A stretch of DNA of 35,664 nt from a virus. The notes beneath the pieces are model-generated. The model saw only the letters and a program-made list of their open reading frames with translations, had not been told where the DNA came from and made no database searches. Location of the stretch: UHGV virus genome UHGV-0379599. One strand, written 5' to 3'. Below, in pieces: positions 1,283 through 24,425 of the stretch (the first letter of the stretch is position 1; every line of letters begins with the position of its first letter). Position numbers and translations under genes: made by a program.

Positions 1283-3604
1283 ATGAGCACGAAATTTAAA
1301 ACCGTTATCACTACTGCCGGAGCCGCAAAGCTGGCAGCCGCCACTGTCCCCGGCGGGAAAAAAGTAACTCTGTCTGCAATGGCCGTGGGTGACGGTAATG
1401 GCAAATTGCCGGTGCCGGATACCGGTCAGACGAAACTGGTGCATGAGGTCTGGCGTCACGCTCTGAATAAAGTCAGCGTGGATAATAAGAATAAAAACTA
1501 TATCGTGGCTGAACTGGTTGTACCGCCCGAAGTGGGCGGCTTCTGGATGCGTGAGCTTGGTCTGTATGACGATGCCGGAACACTGATTGCGGTATCCAAT
1601 ATGGCAGAAAGCTATAAGCCTGAACTGGCTGAAGGCTCCGGACGTGCGCAGACCTGCCGCATGGTTATTATTGTCAGCAACGTGGCATCCGTTGAGCTGA
1701 GTATTGATGCCAGCACAGTGATGGCGACGCAGGATTACGTCGATGACAAAATCGCAGAGCATGAGCAGTCCCGCCGCCATCCTGACGCCACGCTGACAGA
1801 AAAAGGTTTTACTCAGTTAAGCAGTGCAACAAACAGCACCAGTGAAAAGCTGGCGGCAACGCCAAAAGCTGTCAAAGCAGTGTTTGACCTGGCAAACAGA
1901 AAACAGCCACTTGATGCAACTTTAACCGCACTTGCTGGCCTTGCGACAGGCGCAAATAAATTGCCGTACTTTACCGGTACAGACACTGTTTCTCAGACTG
2001 ACTTAACGTCAGTCGGTCGCGATATTCTGGCCAAAACAAGCGTTCTTGCTGTTATCCAATACCTTGGTTTTAGAGAACTCGGTACAAGTGGTGAAAAGAT
2101 CCCCCTGTTGAGCACGGCTAACACATGGAGTGCACGCCAGACTTTCAACGGTGGGATCACCGGGGCGCTGACAGGGAACGCCGACACCGCAACGAAATTG
2201 AAAACAGCGCGGAAGATTAACAACGTTTCATTTGACGGTTCGACAGATATTACTTTAACAGCCTCGGATGTCGAAGCATTGTCACTGGAGGATGCCAGGA
2301 AGATTATTCAACCGCTGCCTGATGTGTGGATACCGTTTAATGATTCACTGGATATGATTACGGGCTTTTCGCCATCATATAAAAAGATTGTTATTGGCGA
2401 CGACGAAATAACAATGCCTGGCGACAAGGTTGTTAAGTTTAAACGCGCATCGAAAGCAACCTATATTAATAAATCTGGTGTGCTGACAGAGACTGCCATT
2501 GACGAGCCACGATTTGAACGTGATGGCCTGCTTATTGAGGGACAACGAACAAACTACATGCTCAATTCGGAAAACCCTGCCAGTTGGGGGCGATCGTCAA
2601 ATATGGATGTTCCCGAAACCGGGACGGATAGTTTTGGTTTTACCTATGGAAAGTTTGTCTGTAACGATTCTCTGATTGGGCAAACGTCAGCCATTAATAT
2701 GGCATCAATTGCTGCTACAAAGTCAGTTGATGTTTCAGGCGATAACAAGTACGTGACAACCTCATGTCGTTTTAAAACAGAACGACAGGTAAGGTTGCGT
2801 ATCCGCTTTGATAAATATGACGGTAGTGCAACAACTTTTCTTGGTGATGCATATATTGATACACAAACGCTTGAAATTAATATGACAGGTGGCGCGGCCT
2901 CAAGGATTACAGCGAGAGTCAGAAAGGACGAAGCTACCGGATGGATTTTTGCAGAGGCAACAATCCAGGCAATTGATGATGAGTTAAAAATAGGATCTCA
3001 GATACAGTATTCCCCTAAGCAGGGCGGAGCAACCGTATCTGGAGACTATATTTATCTGGCCACCCCTCAGGTTGAGGATGGTTCGTGTGCATCATCTTTT
3101 ATTATCTCAGGAACGACGGCGGCTACCCGCGCAAGCGATATAGTTACAGTTCCAATTAAGAATAATCTTTATAATCTTCCTTTTACGGTTCTTTGTGAGG
3201 TACATAAGAACTGGTATAAAACGCCAAATGCAGCGCCGCGTGTTTTTGATACAGGCGGTCATCAAACCGGAGCGGCTATTATTCTTGGCTTCGGTTCTTC
3301 AGCAGATTACGACGGATTTCCTTATTGCGATATTGGAGGAGCTAACAGACGGGTAAACGAAAACGCATCGCTTGAAAAAATGGTTATGGGGATGCGTGTA
3401 AAATCAGATCAGTCTACGTGCTCAGTAAGTAACGGGCGCATATCCAGCGAAACAAAGACTACGTGGTCCTATATTCAGAACTCTGCAACCATCCGTATTG
3501 GAGGCCAGACTACAGCAGGGTTACGTCATTTATTTGGTCATATCAGGAATTTCAGAATATGGCATAAAGCATTAACAGACCAACAAATGGCTGAGGTTAT
3601 TTAA
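1283..3604 (+). CDS. H: Tail fibre protein H (773 aa), with a conserved N-terminal part and a divergent AT-richer C-terminal receptor-binding part
   Basis: N-terminus MSTKFKTVITTAGAAKLAAA and internal TEKGFTQLSSATNSTSEKLAATPKAVKAV are typical of P2 H / lambdoid side tail fibres. GC appears to drop after about 2300. Confidence 0.85.
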   Translation: MSTKFKTVITTAGAAKLAAATVPGGKKVTLSAMAVGDGNGKLPVPDTGQTKLVHEVWRHALNKVSVDNKNKNYIVAELVVPPEVGGFWMRELGLYDDAGTLIAVSNMAESYKPELAEGSGRAQTCRMVIIVSNVASVELSIDASTVMATQDYVDDKIAEHEQSRRHPDATLTEKGFTQLSSATNSTSEKLAATPKAVKAVFDLANRKQPLDATLTALAGLATGANKLPYFTGTDTVSQTDLTSVGRDILAKTSVLAVIQYLGFRELGTSGEKIPLLSTANTWSARQTFNGGITGALTGNADTATKLKTARKINNVSFDGSTDITLTASDVEALSLEDARKIIQPLPDVWIPFNDSLDMITGFSPSYKKIVIGDDEITMPGDKVVKFKRASKATYINKSGVLTETAIDEPRFERDGLLIEGQRTNYMLNSENPASWGRSSNMDVPETGTDSFGFTYGKFVCNDSLIGQTSAINMASIAATKSVDVSGDNKYVTTSCRFKTERQVRLRIRFDKYDGSATTFLGDAYIDTQTLEINMTGGAASRITARVRKDEATGWIFAEATIQAIDDELKIGSQIQYSPKQGGATVSGDYIYLATPQVEDGSCASSFIISGTTAATRASDIVTVPIKNNLYNLPFTVLCEVHKNWYKTPNAAPRVFDTGGHQTGAAIILGFGSSADYDGFPYCDIGGANRRVNENASLEKMVMGMRVKSDQSTCSVSNGRISSETKTTWSYIQNSATIRIGGQTTAGLRHLFGHIRNFRIWHKALTDQQMAEVI

Positions 3605-3882
3605 TGAAAGATATTACGTTGAAATTCAGAGACAGAGCAGAATACGACTCTTTTTTAGAGAGTATATCCTGGCACGATAATGAAGAACTGCAAAACAACA
3701 TCCTTCTTGATGTTGTAGGTATTACATATACCGAAATACCAAACGGCGAGAACGAAGAACCAACAGTGATTAAAAATGATGGCTTCTTTGTTAATGTTCG
3801 TATTTTAAACGACAGTTTGAAACAACAAATGTTTGATGGTTTTGAAGTTCAATTAGAACAACCGCTGCGGGAATGGGCGTAA
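3604..3882 (+). CDS. Hypothetical 92-aa protein, translationally coupled to H (TAATG overlap); possible fibre chaperone/accessory
   Basis: AT-rich ORF; start overlaps the H stop. No recognisable motif. Confidence 0.45.
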   Translation: MKDITLKFRDRAEYDSFLESISWHDNEELQNNILLDVVGITYTEIPNGENEEPTVIKNDGFFVNVRILNDSLKQQMFDGFEVQLEQPLREWA

Positions 3883-3891
3883 GGAATTAAT

Positions 3892-4803
3892 ATGGCAACA
3901 GTGACAACGATACCAGCAGATATAACTAATCTGAAAAAAGAAATCGACTCTATTAAGAGTAATGTTGCTAAAAAACTGGAAATTTCAGGCGGCACAATAA
4001 CTGGTGATCTAACAGTTGTTGGTGGCATTTCTGGTGAGCTGTCCGGAAATGCCTCAACAGCCACAAAACTAAAAACCGCGCGAAAGATTAATTCCGTTTC
4101 GTTTGATGGTTCAAAAGACATTAACCTCACGCCTGAAAATGTTGGTGCATTGCCAATAACCGGAGGAGCTCTTACCGGCGGTTTAACGGCTGCTGGCGAG
4201 ATTGTTTCCAAATCAGGAAACGGCTTCCGCATCGTACAGGGTAACTATGGATTCTTTATCCGAAACGATGGTTCAAACACATACTTCATGTTGACCAATT
4301 CGGGCGACAGCCTAGGAACATGGAATAGTTTAAGGCCGCTTACCATTAACGATGCCAGTGGTGGAGTAACTATTGGGAACGGTTTAACGGTTAATGGTTC
4401 TCTTGGTCTGGGTACTGCAAATGCTCTTGGCGGTAACTCTATCGTTCTTGGCGATAATGATACTGGTTTTAAACAGAACGGTGACGGCCTGCTTGATGTT
4501 TATGCAAATAGCCAGCATGTATTCCGCTTTCAGAATGGTACTTTGCAGAGTAACAAGCCAGTTAATGTCGCAGGTCAGGTGACTCCATCAGATTACGGTA
4601 ATTTTGATTCCCGCTATGTGAGGGATGTCAGACTTGGCACACGTGTTGTTCAGACCATGCAAAAAGGCGTGATGTATGAAAAATCAGGTCATGTAATCAC
4701 GGGGCTTGGTATTGTCGGTGAAGTCGATGGTGATGACCCCGCAGTATTCCGACCAATACAAAAATACATCAATGGCACATGGTATAACGTTGCGCAGGTG
4801 TAA
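3892..4803 (+). CDS. Tail-fibre distal (tip) module, 303 aa, lacking an N-terminal baseplate-attachment domain
   Basis: Shares the junction motif NASTATKLKTARKINSVSFDGSKDINLT with H (NADTATKLKTARKINNVSFDGSTDITLT, about nt 2170-2260). Block GNGFRIVQGNYGFFIRNDGSNTYFMLTNSGDSLGTWNSLRPLTINDASGGVTIG resembles lambdoid Stf C-terminal regions. SD-like taaggaa upstream. Confidence 0.6.
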   Translation: MATVTTIPADITNLKKEIDSIKSNVAKKLEISGGTITGDLTVVGGISGELSGNASTATKLKTARKINSVSFDGSKDINLTPENVGALPITGGALTGGLTAAGEIVSKSGNGFRIVQGNYGFFIRNDGSNTYFMLTNSGDSLGTWNSLRPLTINDASGGVTIGNGLTVNGSLGLGTANALGGNSIVLGDNDTGFKQNGDGLLDVYANSQHVFRFQNGTLQSNKPVNVAGQVTPSDYGNFDSRYVRDVRLGTRVVQTMQKGVMYEKSGHVITGLGIVGEVDGDDPAVFRPIQKYINGTWYNVAQV

Positions 4804-4806
4804 ATT

Positions 4807-5334
4807 ATGCAGCATTTAAAAAACATTAAGTCAGGTAATCCAAAAACAAAAGAACAATATCAGCTAACAAAGAATTTTGATGTTATCTGGTTATGGTCCG
4901 AAGACGGAAAAAACTGGTATGAGGAAGTAAGTAACTTTCAGGAAGACACAATAAAAATTCTTTACGACGAGAATGATATTATTATCGCCATCACCAAAGA
5001 TGCCTCCACGCTTAACCCTGAGGGTTTTAGCGTTGTTGAGGTTCCTGATATTACCGCCAACCGACGTGCAGACGACTCAGGTAAATGGATGTTTAAGGAT
5101 GGTGCCGTGATTAAGCGGATTTATACGGCGGACGAACAGCAGCAACTGGCAGAATTACAGAAGGCAACTTTGCTTTCCGAAGCTGAATCCGTGATTTTGC
5201 CGCTGGAACGCGCTGTCAGGCTGAATATGGCAACAGATGAGGAGCACAGCCGACTGGAAGCATGGGAACGCTACAGTGTTCTGGTCAGCCGTGTGGATAC
5301 GGCAAATCCCGAATGGCCACAAAAGCCTGAATAA
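4807..5334 (+). CDS. G: Tail fibre assembly protein (Tfa / P2 G-like)
   Basis: 175 aa; N-terminus [41 protein letters not shown] is characteristic of enterobacterial phage tail-fibre assembly proteins. Confidence 0.8.
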
Positions 5335-5341
5335 AAATTAA

Positions 5342-5368
5342 GGCCCGATAGCGGGCCTTGTCTCATTC
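5342..5368. terminator. Hairpin (GGCCCG-atag-CGGGCC) in the convergent G/U intergenic region
   Basis: Inverted repeat directly after the G stop, followed by TTGTCTCATT on + and a T-run on -. Confidence 0.4.
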
Positions 5369-5540
5369 AGGTTGTTCGGGAAACGTTGCTGGCAGGCTGG
5401 AGGTGTCTGTAGATTCGACTTTCTACGCGTAGAGCATCCACTCGGTTAATTTTTGTTTATTCTCGTCGGAAATGATGTCCAGCCGTAGCTGTGAGTCCCA
5501 TAGGCGATATACAGGCCGAAGAAACAACCAGGCAGATCCA

Positions 5541-6088: not shown

Positions 6089-8932
6089 TCAATCTTTATC
6101 GTAAAAACTGCCACGTCCGGCACGGGCGCGCCGTTCCATCTCTGCCCTGACCATTTCACCGACCAGTTTCGCCAGTTCGCGGGGATTCTGCGTAACAACG
6201 TTATGCAGATGGACATGAATTTCACCACCAAATCCGGAGGCAACAGGCTCCCGGTTACGGGAAGTTGCAGGAACTGATGCCACTGGCGATCGTATGGCCT
6301 CCGCCACCGGGCGGGAGCTGGCCGCAACAACAGGGACCAGCGCCGGAGGCAGCGGAGCCGGGACCACGGGTGTGATATTAATTGCGGGGGCAGGCTTACT
6401 GGCCTGCGCAATCTTCCGCTCCTGCCACTCCCCACGAACGGCAAGTGCGCGGGGCAGGTTCTTAAAGACAATATCACCGGGGCCAATGCGTTTTTTCGTC
6501 TCATCAACCAGCTTACCTGTGTTATCAGCAATTTTGCTGAGTCTGCGTAGCGTACCGGTATTGCTGTCTGTGAGCGGTTTGTTGTCTTTGGGGTTATCAC
6601 CTCCGGTGCCATTGCCATTTTCCACAGGCTTCGGCGGATTGATTTTCGCAATGTCTCCCTGAAACAGAGCAACCTTGTCCTGAAGAATGGCCGCACGCTG
6701 TGCGTCTTCGATTTTCTTGCGCGCCCTTTCCGCTTCATCCGGAAGGACGCCAAGTTTTTCAAGTATCCACGCCAGCGTATCCAGTAGCATTTTTGCAGGT
6801 GTCAGAACAAGCTGTAACGCACCGCCAAGAACGTTACCGAATATCTCGCCAGCACTGGTACATTTATCCAGCGTTTCCTTGCTGGACTCCATCGGTGACA
6901 GCAGCGATTTAAACCAGTTAAACACCTGGCTGATCCCGCTTCCGATTGCGTCAAAAACAGGACCAAACCGCTCAAAGGTTTCGCGCAACGGGGTCAGCCT
7001 TTCCATAATCCCGCTGAACACCCCGGCAAAAAATGCCCTGATGGGATCCCAGTATTTCCAGATAAGAACGGCAGCTCCGGCAAGCGCAGCCACGATAAGA
7101 CCAACCGGACTGAACAGCGCCCCGATAGCGCCTCCCAGCAAAGAAACAGAACCCGTCACCATTCCCCACAGCGCAGGCAACACCCTGACGACATTCATTG
7201 ACCGGGTAAGAATGTCAAAACCAAGACGCAGGGTGGCCAGCTTCCCGTAAAGCACCCCAATAACCAGCGACAACGAGCCAATCGTTGCAGTCATTGCCAG
7301 CAACGCACCGCCTGCTATCAGTAGCTGGCGCGTCAATACCGGATGGGCCTGCGCCAGCGAGGTGATTTTTTCAAGCACCCGCGTGAGCCACTGCGTGACA
7401 GAACGCAGCGGACCGTCAACCAGATCACTGATGCGAATACGAAGACCTTCCCATGCGCTGTCGAGATTTTTCAGGTCCCCATCAAGATTATCGGCCATTA
7501 CTTTTGCGACGCGATCGGCCTCTCCCCTTGCCCCCTGCAATTCTCTGGTCAGTTTTTGCAGCTCTCCTGAACCAGCCGCCGCAACAAGCGTCTGCAAACC
7601 AACGAACGCCTCTTCTCCGGCGATGTCCTTGAAGAAGGAAACCTGGTCCACCTGTCCGTATTTTTGTGTCGCCTTATAGAGATCAAGCAGCACATCCTCC
7701 ATCGGGCGCATTTTGCCTCTGGCGTCAGCAACTGACACCCCCAGCTCTTTCAGTGCATCAGCCGCAGCTTTTGGCGGTGATGCAAGGCGGGACAGACTTG
7801 CGCGCATGGCCGTACCAGCATCGCTTCCACGAAGACCATTATTGGCAAGCATCCCGGCCATGGCCGCCGCTTCTTCAAGACTGATACCAAGTTTTGCGGC
7901 AACCGGACCGGTATACTTCATGGTTTCGCCCAGCGCGCGTAAATCAGTATTGGTCCGGGTGAATGCTGCTGTCAGCGTATCGCCAACCCGGTCCATTTGA
8001 TCGGCTGTCAGGTTGAACTGTGTGAGGATATTGGAGCCTATATCAGCCGTCTCGCCGAGTTCGACGCCACCTGCCAGCGCCATATTAAGAACACCGGGCA
8101 ATGCGGCCTGAATGGCCTGCGGAGTAAAACCAGCCATTGCCAGAAAGCTCTGCCCACTGGCGGCATCACTCGCAGTAAACTGTGTTTCAGAGCCAAGTTT
8201 TAACGCCTGCTCACGCAGCGCCTTAAACTGCGGGCTGTTTTTGTCGATTCGCGTCAGTGCCTGAACGCGGGACATCTCTTTCCCGAACCCGATCGCAGGC
8301 TGCAAAAAACGTCCGGCAGCATAGCCGCCCGCCGCTGCCGCACCAATTGCCAGCGCACCACCTGTTTTCAGTTTTCCCGCTGTTTCCTGCGCGCGCGAAT
8401 ACCGCTCACGCGCCCGCGTTACACGCGCAAGCGCCTGCCGTTCGCGTTCAAGCTGGTTGTTGTACTGTTCGGTGCGTCTGATGGCCTGCTGGATGGTGTT
8501 ATCGCTGCCTGTCAGGGAAATGCCGTGGCGTTTCAGCTCTCCGCCAAGCTCCCGCATTTTCTGAATTTCACGTGTGCGCGATTCATTCAGGCGTTCAAGC
8601 CGGGTGCTTAACTGCTGCATCAGCTTTTGTTGTTTTTCGCTGAGCACTGTACCCGTGCGTTGTAACTGATTAAGGGCGTTAAGCTGGCGTCGTGCTTTCA
8701 CGATGCCCGCATCCGCTTTACTGACAGCGTCGCGGGCGCGCTCAAATGAACGCGCCTGACGCTCGAGATTTTTGATCGCCCCCTGCGTTCGCTGAATGGA
8801 GTCACCAAACTGCCCCATCAGGCGGCGGGCGTTTTCGGCAGGCCGGGTCAGCCTGTCAACGGCGCTGAAAGCGACCCGGATGTCAAGAGTCTTCATTATC
8901 TGCATTCCCGCTGCGAAGTGCCGCCCGCTCAC
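6089..8932 (-). CDS. T: Tail tape measure protein T (947 aa)
   Basis: Long alpha-helical, Ala/Gln/Arg-rich N-terminal half, hydrophobic Gly-rich central segment, Pro-rich C-terminus; located between E/E' and U. Confidence 0.85.
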   Translation of the reverse strand: MSGRHFAAGMQIMKTLDIRVAFSAVDRLTRPAENARRLMGQFGDSIQRTQGAIKNLERQARSFERARDAVSKADAGIVKARRQLNALNQLQRTGTVLSEKQQKLMQQLSTRLERLNESRTREIQKMRELGGELKRHGISLTGSDNTIQQAIRRTEQYNNQLERERQALARVTRARERYSRAQETAGKLKTGGALAIGAAAAGGYAAGRFLQPAIGFGKEMSRVQALTRIDKNSPQFKALREQALKLGSETQFTASDAASGQSFLAMAGFTPQAIQAALPGVLNMALAGGVELGETADIGSNILTQFNLTADQMDRVGDTLTAAFTRTNTDLRALGETMKYTGPVAAKLGISLEEAAAMAGMLANNGLRGSDAGTAMRASLSRLASPPKAAADALKELGVSVADARGKMRPMEDVLLDLYKATQKYGQVDQVSFFKDIAGEEAFVGLQTLVAAAGSGELQKLTRELQGARGEADRVAKVMADNLDGDLKNLDSAWEGLRIRISDLVDGPLRSVTQWLTRVLEKITSLAQAHPVLTRQLLIAGGALLAMTATIGSLSLVIGVLYGKLATLRLGFDILTRSMNVVRVLPALWGMVTGSVSLLGGAIGALFSPVGLIVAALAGAAVLIWKYWDPIRAFFAGVFSGIMERLTPLRETFERFGPVFDAIGSGISQVFNWFKSLLSPMESSKETLDKCTSAGEIFGNVLGGALQLVLTPAKMLLDTLAWILEKLGVLPDEAERARKKIEDAQRAAILQDKVALFQGDIAKINPPKPVENGNGTGGDNPKDNKPLTDSNTGTLRRLSKIADNTGKLVDETKKRIGPGDIVFKNLPRALAVRGEWQERKIAQASKPAPAINITPVVPAPLPPALVPVVAASSRPVAEAIRSPVASVPATSRNREPVASGFGGEIHVHLHNVVTQNPRELAKLVGEMVRAEMERRARAGRGSFYDKD

Positions 8933-23465: not shown

Positions 23466-24425
23466 ATGAAAATTTGTATCGACGACGGCTCCACCAACAT
23501 CAAGCTGGCATGGACTGAGAACGGCGAACGCCGCAACGCCATCAGCCCGAACAGCTTCAAGTCGGAATGGTCTGCGCCGTTCGGTGGTACACAGCCCGCG
23601 AACTACATGCTTGATGGCGTGCGCTATGGTTTTGATCCGGTCAGCGATCGCTTTGTCCAGACGACCGACACGCAATACCAGTACAGCGATGTGAATGTCA
23701 TTGCCATTCATCACGCGCTGGTCAAATCAGGCATCACGCCACAGGAGGTGGATGTGGTTGTCACCCTGCCACTGAGCGAGTATTTCGACACAAACGCACA
23801 ACCGGACATGGCCAACATCAACCGCAAAAAAGTGAACGTTATGCGCCCGGTGGAATACCAGAACGGCGAAACATTCACTATCCGCAACGTACGGGTTATG
23901 CCTGAATCCATTCCGGCTGGCTTTAAGGCACTGGCTGACATGAGTCCGTTTGAATCCCTGCTGATTGTGGATTTAGGCGGAACCACGCTGGATGTGGCAA
24001 AGGTTCAGGGACAACTGGCAGGTATCAGCCAGGTGTTTTGCGATCCACACGTAGGCGTTTCCCTGATAGCCGATGCCGTACTGTCGGTGATGGCCACTAA
24101 CGGTATGCGTACCAGTCACCATATCGCCAATACCATCATCGAACATCGCCACGATGAAGCCTGGCTGCGCCAGCACATCCACAATGACGCGCATTACGAC
24201 AGCCTGATGGCGGTTATTCGTGAAAAGGAAGAAACACTGAAACAACGCGTGATCCGCGCGCTGGCGGGTTTTTCGGGTTACGGGCGGGTGATGGTTGTCG
24301 GTGGCGGGGCGGAGATTGTGGCACCCGCTATCCGCGAAGCCTGCGGAGTTAATGCGACTTTCATCGCGGACGGGGTGCCACAGTTTGCTCTGGTTAATGG
24401 GCTGTACGCAATGGACAAGGAGTAA
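23466..24425 (+). CDS. parM: ParM/StbA-like actin-type plasmid segregation ATPase
   Basis: MKICIDDGSTNIKLAW...ISPNSFK...YSDVNVIAIHHAL...VDLGGTT closely parallels recalled plasmid R1 ParM (MLVFIDDGSTNIKLQW...ISPNSFK...YSDVNVVAVHHAL). Confidence 0.8.
   Translation: MKICIDDGSTNIKLAWTENGERRNAISPNSFKSEWSAPFGGTQPANYMLDGVRYGFDPVSDRFVQTTDTQYQYSDVNVIAIHHALVKSGITPQEVDVVVTLPLSEYFDTNAQPDMANINRKKVNVMRPVEYQNGETFTIRNVRVMPESIPAGFKALADMSPFESLLIVDLGGTTLDVAKVQGQLAGISQVFCDPHVGVSLIADAVLSVMATNGMRTSHHIANTIIEHRHDEAWLRQHIHNDAHYDSLMAVIREKEETLKQRVIRALAGFSGYGRVMVVGGGAEIVAPAIREACGVNATFIADGVPQFALVNGLYAMDKE

Follow-up and report, generated by a model that had tools for sequence, protein, structure and literature searches.

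Why should a P2-like phage, whose tail fibre is canonically a single polypeptide, carry behind its tail-fibre gene a second fibre gene in which no baseplate-attachment domain is found? The question is raised by the viral genome UHGV-0379599, that of a P2-like E. coli prophage, a stretch of 35,664 nucleotides (nt) which was analysed at its full length and is referred to here as the window. In this genome the tail-fibre gene H is followed by a small open reading frame (ORF) of 92 codons (orf92), a second fibre gene of 303 codons (orf303), and the gene G for a tail-fibre assembly chaperone (Tfa). The comparison of this locus with the fibres of other phages leads to the answer that the four genes probably encode one composite tail fibre, showing two receptor-binding modules at once. 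The elements on which this answer depends are the following, with protein lengths given in amino acids (aa).

1283-3604, + strand: H, encoding the proximal tail-fibre protein H' (773 aa), with a native P2 collar N-terminus, an imported shaft and a lectin-like C-domain
2315-3601, + strand: the C-domain of H' (aa 345-773, starting QPLPDVWIPFNDSLDM), a lectin-like putative glycan-binding module
3604-3882, + strand: orf92, a small accessory protein of PHROG 1361
3892-4803, + strand: orf303, the distal fibre protein, with a putative docking motif, a coiled-coil-like stretch, a shaft and a Tfa-dependent tip
3892-3939, + strand: the N-terminal 16-aa motif of orf303, MATVTTIPADITNLKK, a putative docking peptide (consensus M[AV]TxTxIPxDIxxLK)
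4807-5334, + strand: G (Tfa, tail-fibre assembly chaperone; Pfam Caudo_TAP PF02413, expectation value, E, 6.7e-34), native P2-like and cognate to the orf303 tip
1901-4535, + strand: the imported block, comprising the shaft end, the junction motif, the C-domain, orf92 and the first ~214 codons of orf303

In the composite fibre so envisaged, H' would anchor to the P2-type baseplate via its native collar N-terminus, and its imported lectin-like end would bind a surface polysaccharide, probably for example O-antigen. Trimers of the orf303 product would form with the aid of G and dock onto the C-terminal module of H' by their 16-residue N-terminal motif, behind which lies the coiled-coil-like stretch.

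A preliminary description of the locus, made from the sequence without database searches, had read H as a chimera that is followed by a coupled 92-aa ORF and by a 303-aa ORF, the latter a fibre tip without a baseplate-attachment N-terminus, and then by a Tfa-like gene; each of these points is upheld by the gene junctions and by the domain searches. The four genes form one tightly packed operon whose neighbours overlap or sit 3-9 nt apart. The ATG of orf92 overlaps the stop codon of H by 1 nt (TAATG, with GAGG upstream), orf303 starts 9 nt past the orf92 stop with AAGGA ahead, and G starts 3-4 nt past the orf303 stop, a Shine-Dalgarno-like sequence being found ahead of each start in the fibre operon. 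None of the gene junctions from H to G showed a terminator-like site, and the search for sigma-70-like sites returned 6 against 8.7 expected in shuffled sequence, which gives no sign of a separate orf303 promoter. A programmed frameshift or readthrough that would fuse the ORFs was considered and rejected on the clean stops and the starts with ribosome-binding sites. The proportion of G and C falls along the operon from 0.50-0.55 (1283-1900) through 0.42-0.46 (2250-3600) to 0.36-0.38 around orf92 (3450-4050).

The chimeric nature of H is evident from its domains. In Pfam, aa 1-151 match the P2 collar domain Phage_tail_fib (PF12571, E 1.4e-57), which among the fibre ORFs is present only in H, and aa 170-209 match the fibre repeat Phage_fiber_2 (PF03406, E 2e-20). 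The imported C-domain belongs to PHROG 1419 (E 6e-235). In the Bas32-type fibre module discussed below, the corresponding domain is about 430-440 aa long, starts with PLPDVWIPFNDSLDM and finishes with RHLFGHxRNxRxWHK, and H aa 345-773 both starts and finishes in this manner. The NCBIfam domain GTA_spike_fiber (NF048003, phage head spike fiber domain) matches H aa 417-617 with 53.9 bits over a cut-off of 36 (E 3.1e-14). Likewise, a profile of diverse C-domain homologues finds the RcGTA head spike fibre Rcc01080 in the PDB (6TB9, E 1.8e-15), and a Laminin_G_3 or ConA-like lectin match lies in the last ~50 residues of the C-domain in 7 of 11 homologues (best E 1.1e-5). The continuity from collar to tip in one polypeptide, as in P2 gpH, is absent from this locus, since H ends in the lectin-like domain and the P2-type tip is found in the separate orf303.

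The orf303 product is homologous to Mu gpS (PDB 5YVQ, E 1.5e-44), aa 100-196 aligning with gpS 268-366 and aa 226-302 with gpS 424-503, so that the similarity reaches the C-terminus. It also matches T4 gp34 in the PDB (E 7.6e-22), and Gp34_trimer (E 6.6e-30) and gp37_trimer in Pfam, and the Pfam scan detected no collar or baseplate-attachment domain in it. The two parts of the protein have different relatives. Residues 1-214 are P1-like, with 197 of 214 identical to the gene in the P1-like plasmid NZ_CP123334 (locus L002 of this analysis), and the last 89 residues (aa 215-303) are a native P2-type tip, of which 80 are identical to residues 823-911 of H in Peduovirus P24B2. The G protein shares 92-93% aa identity with G of P24B2 and of an E. 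coli M45 prophage and 36% with the Tfa of the P1-like donor. Both the tip of orf303 and G are therefore P2-like, and a cognate pair of tip and chaperone has been preserved.

The nucleotide comparison agrees with this division. The closest relative of the whole window is the Peduoviridae phage P88 (Xuanwuvirus), with 94-98% identity over most of the length. Positions 844-1880 are P2-like, homology to the P1-like and 48-kilobase (kb) plasmids begins at 1760-1901, and positions 4393-5334 are P2-like again; the homology to P24B2, the M45 prophage and P88 ends at 1880-1903 and resumes at 4393-4592. The imported block is 96.4% identical over 2638 nt to L002 (6001-8638), and window positions 1760-4398 are 93.9% identical to a 48-kb phage-plasmid (L001), one of a family of such phage-plasmids. 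In L002 the block lies within the invertible C segment, which is bounded by 197-nt inverted repeats (6154-6350 and 12093-12289) and adjoined by a recombinase gene, and the donor distal fibre gene is of full length (365 aa in L002, 346 aa in L001). Hence a P1-like block of about 2.6 kb entered a canonical single-polypeptide H by a double crossover in homologous fibre sequence, an event that divided H into H', orf92 and orf303 with the original tip and the chaperone G retained. Judged from the breakpoints, the import brought the ~430-aa C-domain, the 92-aa gene, and a new orf303 start with its 16-aa motif.

The organization of the donor may be described separately. One arm of the C segment (L002 4800-13000) consists of a four-gene cassette, namely the C-domain end of S, an orf92 homologue, the 365-aa distal fibre and a Tfa gene, and the other arm has a single-chain 630-aa tip with its own Tfa. 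These two types of arm imply that the plasmid switches between a two-protein and a one-protein fibre.

Invertible segments of this kind are also known from P1 (C segment, Cin), Mu (G segment, Gin) and P88, and the imported block resembles them in being 96% identical to one arm in P1-like plasmids. At the corresponding site P88 has an invertase, an alternative tip and a Tfa gene, whereas the window lacks about 2.0 kb of P88 (24068-26062) holding tfa', the alternative tip and the DNA invertase, and keeps a scar of 54 codons.

5363-5524, - strand: remnant of an inverted second Tfa gene, 54 codons with an in-frame stop (tblastn, 81% identity to P88 gp41 residues 125-178)

The remnant together with the missing P88 segment indicates that an invertible host-range switch has been deleted in this lineage. 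A tblastn search with the P88 invertase found no invertase in the window, where the gap from G to gpU is about 250 bp, and no inverted repeats relevant to a tip switch were found in it. An invertase, an inverted alternative tip and flanking inverted repeats, which the invertible segments possess, are thus all missing from the window. Its modules are fixed in direct orientation, as the preliminary description had noted, and the two are presumably expressed together.

A locus with such a history could contain debris, and it may be asked whether orf303 is a non-functional leftover of the swap, transcribed, not assembled and decaying, with the lectin-like domain of H' as the sole working tip. The last 89 residues of orf303 do remain from the original H, and in many lambdoid prophages and in the phage Bas49 the C-domain and orf92 form a complete fibre end without a distal fibre. 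Against decay, however, the ORF is intact, has a good ribosome-binding site, and starts at a spacing of 9 nt from orf92 which recurs in 115 other loci. Both its start and its docking motif were brought in by the donor block, from a donor gene of full length. Moreover, orf303 is under purifying selection: the ratio of nonsynonymous to synonymous substitution rates (dN/dS) is 0.17-0.36 (0.17 against P24B2, 0.26 against L002), comparable values being 0.14-0.30 for the C-domain, 0.23 for orf92 and 0.13 for the cognate G, which is itself intact. Identical orf303 proteins are found on 98 E. coli contigs and identical H proteins on 38. That orf303 is a leftover is thus very improbable; the suggestion that it is the remnant of a module swap stands with regard to the swap, to which the native tip testifies (80 of 89 residues), and fails with regard to decay.

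An assembly artefact was also considered as the source of the arrangement and rejected. Among 24 contigs with identical H, 2 places were inspected and 22 were reported to be similar; one of the 2 inspected places has no gene call for orf303, its coordinates are otherwise the same as in the other, and it is read as an uncalled gene.

The composite fibre draws support from the recurrence of the same module in unrelated phages. In about 200 loci of T5-like, T1-like, Seuratvirus, Dhillonvirus, lambdoid, P1-like and P2-like phages, the C-domain and the 92-aa gene are always adjacent, and the motif heads another fibre gene 9-12 nt behind orf92 in 38 of 54 unique loci. A scan of IMG/VR with a DNA pattern for the 16-aa motif returned 118 sites, and homologues of orf92 and the C-domain lie directly upstream in all of the 117 that could be tested. 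The distal proteins behind the motif belong to at least five unrelated families, including Mu-S-like Tfa-dependent tips, coiled-coil fibres with C-terminal chaperone-like ends, and T-shaped fibres of 574-586 aa, as is expected of an exchangeable plug-in tip. The backbones that carry the module are equally varied and comprise Peduoviridae (the window), P1-like plasmids, the 48-kb phage-plasmid, lambdoid Tritos, Seuratvirus Bas25, Tequintavirus Bas32, Drexlerviridae and Dhillonvirus. Since their tails are unrelated, the distal fibre has no possible partner common to all of them other than the pair of C-domain and orf92.

These observations also bear on the suggestion that orf303 forms a short fibre of its own, joined directly to the baseplate or tail, giving two separate fibre sets. 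Two fibre sets do exist in some myoviruses, and the contact between H' and orf303 is deduced indirectly. On the other hand, orf303 has no collar or baseplate-attachment domain, and the same motif occurs in siphoviruses and in myoviruses with unrelated baseplates, never without the upstream C-domain and orf92 (117 of 117). Furthermore, a published multimer model of Bas32 places the distal fibre on the proximal one (PMC11990801). An independent fibre is accordingly considered unlikely.

The Bas32 model is a close precedent for the composite fibre proposed here. In an AlphaFold-Multimer prediction for Tequintavirus IrisVonRoten (Bas32), Gp24 sits on the proximal fibre Gp22, and the galectin-like domain at the C-terminus of Gp22 projects outwards and might serve as a further receptor-binding domain (Humolli et al., 2025; PLoS Biol, PMC11990801, Fig 12B). 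The layout of three genes is the same as in the window, the C-domain of H' being 65% identical to Gp22 and orf92 54% identical to Gp23, and the distal fibre Gp24 starts 9 nt downstream with the same motif, MVTKTVIPTDITKLK. By its sequence the window belongs to the Bas32-type module, of which it shows three defining features, namely the C-domain end, an overlapping PHROG 1361 gene, and a motif-headed second fibre gene at 9 nt. The two phages differ in the parts on either side of it. Bas32 is a siphovirus, in which a T5-type N-terminal anchor takes the place of the P2 collar, and its distal body, a T-shaped fibre of 574 aa, carries an intramolecular chaperone, whereas the window has a tip of the Mu-S/P2-H type with a separate Tfa. 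The 92-aa protein and the N-terminal motif are not discussed in the Bas32 paper (PMC11990801).

What orf92 contributes to the fibre is suggested by its distribution. The protein belongs to PHROG 1361 (E 5.3e-36), has no relative in Pfam, NCBIfam or PDB searches, and gave uninformative fold searches. Its AlphaFold2 (AF2) model, with a mean predicted local confidence (pLDDT) of 82.9, shows a small alpha/beta fold, with predicted disorder in the invariant C-tail QPLREWA. Homologues occur in 187 phage records (T5-like, T1-like, Seuratvirus/Nonagvirus, Dhillonvirus, lambdoid and rV5-like) and in many IMG/VR prophages, and wherever data exist (81 of 81 loci) the homologue overlaps the stop codon of a fibre gene ending in the C-domain, at C-domain identities of 39-100%. 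In a search for natural fusions of orf92 with fibres, 105 representatives were recovered among 1.84 billion proteins, nearly all of them stand-alone proteins of 85-110 aa. The orf92 protein is best viewed as an obligate companion of the lectin-like domain, which would serve either as an assembly factor or as a small joint subunit.

The orf92 profile also gives weak matches in multiple stretches (5-13) of giant PKD-repeat proteins of 1,400-2,100 aa (P0239, P0240, P0252, P0262 and P0296), which probably reflect local beta-hairpin similarity. The boundary between the C-domain and orf92 deserves separate mention. The C-domain of H is 91% identical at the protein level to that of lambdoid phage Tritos (L003), the nucleotide similarity stops 22 nt into orf92 (window 3626), and the orf92 homologues share 48% protein identity. 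The boundary appears to be a recurrent recombination point, with orf92 travelling together with the N-terminus of the distal fibre.

It may further be argued that the C-domain is a purely structural joint, a knee or adaptor platform that binds no receptor, so that orf303 would be the sole receptor binder and the specificity would be that of the ancestral P2-type fibre. The near-invariance of the first ~80 and last ~30 C-domain residues across phages is what would be seen in a platform. The middle of the domain, however, is highly variable, bringing the overall identity down to 39-45%, in the manner of a specificity determinant, and the C-domain alone ends the fibre in many prophages and in Bas49. 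In addition, homologues of the domain include LamG/ConA-like lectin folds and the RcGTA head spike fibre, which reportedly binds capsule polysaccharide. A joint without receptor binding is thus not a likely role for the C-domain.

The preliminary description had offered a different explanation, in which H and orf303 provide two alternative receptor-binding tips, the second being perhaps a substrate for homologous exchange at a shared junction. The junction motif ATKLKTARKIN.VSFDGS.DI.LT is indeed present twice in direct orientation, at an offset of 1871 nt.

2189-2260, + strand: junction motif copy 1, ATKLKTARKINNVSFDGSTDITLT, H aa 303-326
4060-4131, + strand: junction motif copy 2, ATKLKTARKINSVSFDGSKDINLT, orf303 aa 57-80

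The copies share 21 of 24 residues, 74% of the nucleotides over the 72-nt core and 70% over 91 nt without gaps, and the longest exact run common to both is 8 nt. The repeat is therefore real, with a slight correction: in register its second copy spans 4041-4131, 4 nt off the 4045-4135 first given. The two copies are homologous beyond chance, and the motif is widespread among fibre proteins. Both were already in the donor, so they are a property of the module and no duplication has occurred in this genome.

Under the explanation by alternative tips, recombination at the direct copies, or some other switch, would fuse either tip to H and make the host range phase-variable. Crossing over at the motif would preserve the reading frame and yield again a single-chain fibre, of 549 aa, and the donor block derives from an invertible segment. 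The window, however, has neither an invertase nor relevant inverted repeats, and its repeats are direct, 70-74% identical and without an exact run of more than 8 nt. An exact run of 8 nt falls below the minimal homology and is too short for efficient RecA-dependent recombination, and exchange at the junction within this genome is accordingly unlikely. Besides, a deletion from motif to motif is irreversible and could not act as a switch. In T5-like phages a spontaneous collapse of double-gene ltf loci, leaving single genes, has been reported (Golomidova et al., 2016; PMC4728585), and an occasional collapse of the present locus to a single-gene H is possible. As a regular switch the mechanism is exceedingly improbable. 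Of the earlier claim, the two candidate receptor-binding modules stand; their being alternatives does not, for the orf303 motif is found behind orf92 and the C-domain in each of the 117 testable loci.

Several observations weigh against the composite fibre nevertheless. The identity of orf92 follows that of the distal-fibre N-terminus (rho 0.85) and hardly that of the C-domain (rho 0.21). These values were not counted as evidence of contact, because all three elements are adjacent and close linkage alone could explain them. About 35 lambdoid prophage loci and Vequintavirus Bas49, the latter with a divergent orf92, have the C-domain and orf92 and no distal fibre; orf92 is therefore more than a mere connector, and fibres may be able to do without the docking site. 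The persistence of orf92 in these loci argues that its primary partner is the C-domain and not the distal fibre. The AF2 monomer of the C-domain was unusable (pLDDT 33.7, from input sequences at least 93% identical), and it is by remote homology that the domain probably binds a glycan, a surface polysaccharide such as O-antigen. Lastly, the whole arrangement was found in none of 5,426 complete E. coli genomes and in none of 50,697 phage records, and from these counts the P2-type chimera is real but uncommon.

The lambdoid prophages without a distal fibre (L016-L049) have a feature of their own, in that orf92 is followed by a gene for a 97-aa predicted membrane protein (MDISPLLHALCAVAAQ...; for example L042 6292-6585). 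After this gene the prophages end beside host sitABCD-like genes.

Beyond the composite fibre itself, a wider generalization may be entertained with some doubt. The lectin-like C-domain, the 92-aa protein and the 16-residue peptide might together constitute a universal, portable fibre-on-fibre coupling, able to place any tip onto any anchored fibre in myoviruses as well as siphoviruses, with the 92-aa protein as a new joint subunit or dedicated chaperone. Within this P2-like lineage, simultaneous display by means of such a coupling might have functionally replaced the either/or switch of the invertase.

Other fibres resemble the locus in part. The H and G genes of P2 are reportedly the canonical tail fibre and its chaperone. 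The window shares with the P2-type H/G loci of P24B2, L-413C and P88 the same baseplate genes, the N-terminus of H (90% nt identity), the tip end, and G (89% nt identity). In those phages H is one polypeptide of 764-926 aa from collar to tip; in the window the middle has been replaced and the gene split into H', orf92 and orf303. Similarly, orf303 is homologous to Mu gpS and is followed by a Caudo_TAP chaperone gene, as in the Mu gpS/gpU pair (PDB 5YVQ). Whereas gpS is one protein attached to the baseplate, orf303 has no counterpart of its N-terminal two-thirds and carries the module-specific motif in their place. The joint of the T4 long tail fibre (gp34-gp35-gp36-gp37) differs more strongly: no gp35 or gp36 homologue was found between the proximal and the distal fibre genes, orf92 has no match in Pfam, NCBIfam or the PDB, and orf303 shows only domain-level similarity to the C-terminal region of gp34.

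Branched long tail fibres are known from the T5-like phages DT57C and DT571/2, in which the docking regions of LtfA and LtfB are homologous to phiEco32 gp14 (in LtfA) and gp15 (in the LtfB N-terminus) and both proteins end in the autocleaving chaperone pfam13884 (Golomidova et al., 2016; PMC4728585). As in DT57C, the anchored fibre with its own receptor-binding region would also hold a second receptor-binding fibre encoded downstream, and double-gene loci are prone to collapse. Unlike in DT57C, the pfam13884 chaperone is absent from the Pfam scans of H and orf303 at E <= 0.01. The module is not described in the first BASEL paper or in the DT57C papers, and a literature search on P2-like two-gene fibres returned nothing specific. 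Mosaic fibres, branched fibres and this module have been described or predicted previously and nothing is overturned here; the P2-type context, the split-gene origin, and the strict three-part linkage that includes the 16-aa motif were not found described in the searchable literature.

Tail fibres set the host range of phages and are the main target of host-range engineering. The locus shows how a single-polypeptide fibre can become a two-protein, two-specificity fibre in one recombination event, with tip and chaperone kept together. It also points to a compact and strictly linked connector, made up of the C-domain, the 92-aa protein and the 16-aa peptide, which is common to at least eight phage groups. 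If the docking is true, P2-like phages or tailocins could be given a second receptor-binding module by means of the same connector. Likewise, the uncharacterised PHROG 1361 family gains a testable role in fibre assembly.

The surroundings of the operon are those of a P2-like late region, with the baseplate genes J and then I upstream of H and a terminator-like hairpin directly 3' of G.

712-1272, + strand: baseplate gene I (Pfam Tail_P2_I, E 3e-52), native P2-like context
5340-5359, no strand assigned: GC-rich terminator-like hairpin, marking the end of the fibre operon

Gene I shows 90% nt identity with P24B2 from window position 844 onwards, that is, over most of the gene. The window represents a complete genome of about 35.7 kb in circularly permuted form and has no host flanks. 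Its ends fall within the baseplate gene J (1-752) and in the W/J region (35166-35664), and the alignment to P88 by BLAST goes from 19798 at the start to 19796 at the end.

Two further features lie outside the tail-fibre locus. Downstream of the tail gene cluster, a 1.3-kb segment that is absent from P88 encodes a 356-aa protein (12604-13674, + strand) with an N-terminal PIN_12 domain (E 2.9e-20), possibly an accessory or defence gene. The genome also encodes, as P88 does, a ParM-type plasmid segregation actin (StbA_N/ParM, E 6e-82; 23466-24425, + strand), and in addition a tyrosine integrase (15664-16806, - strand), a combination that is noteworthy in a P2-like phage.

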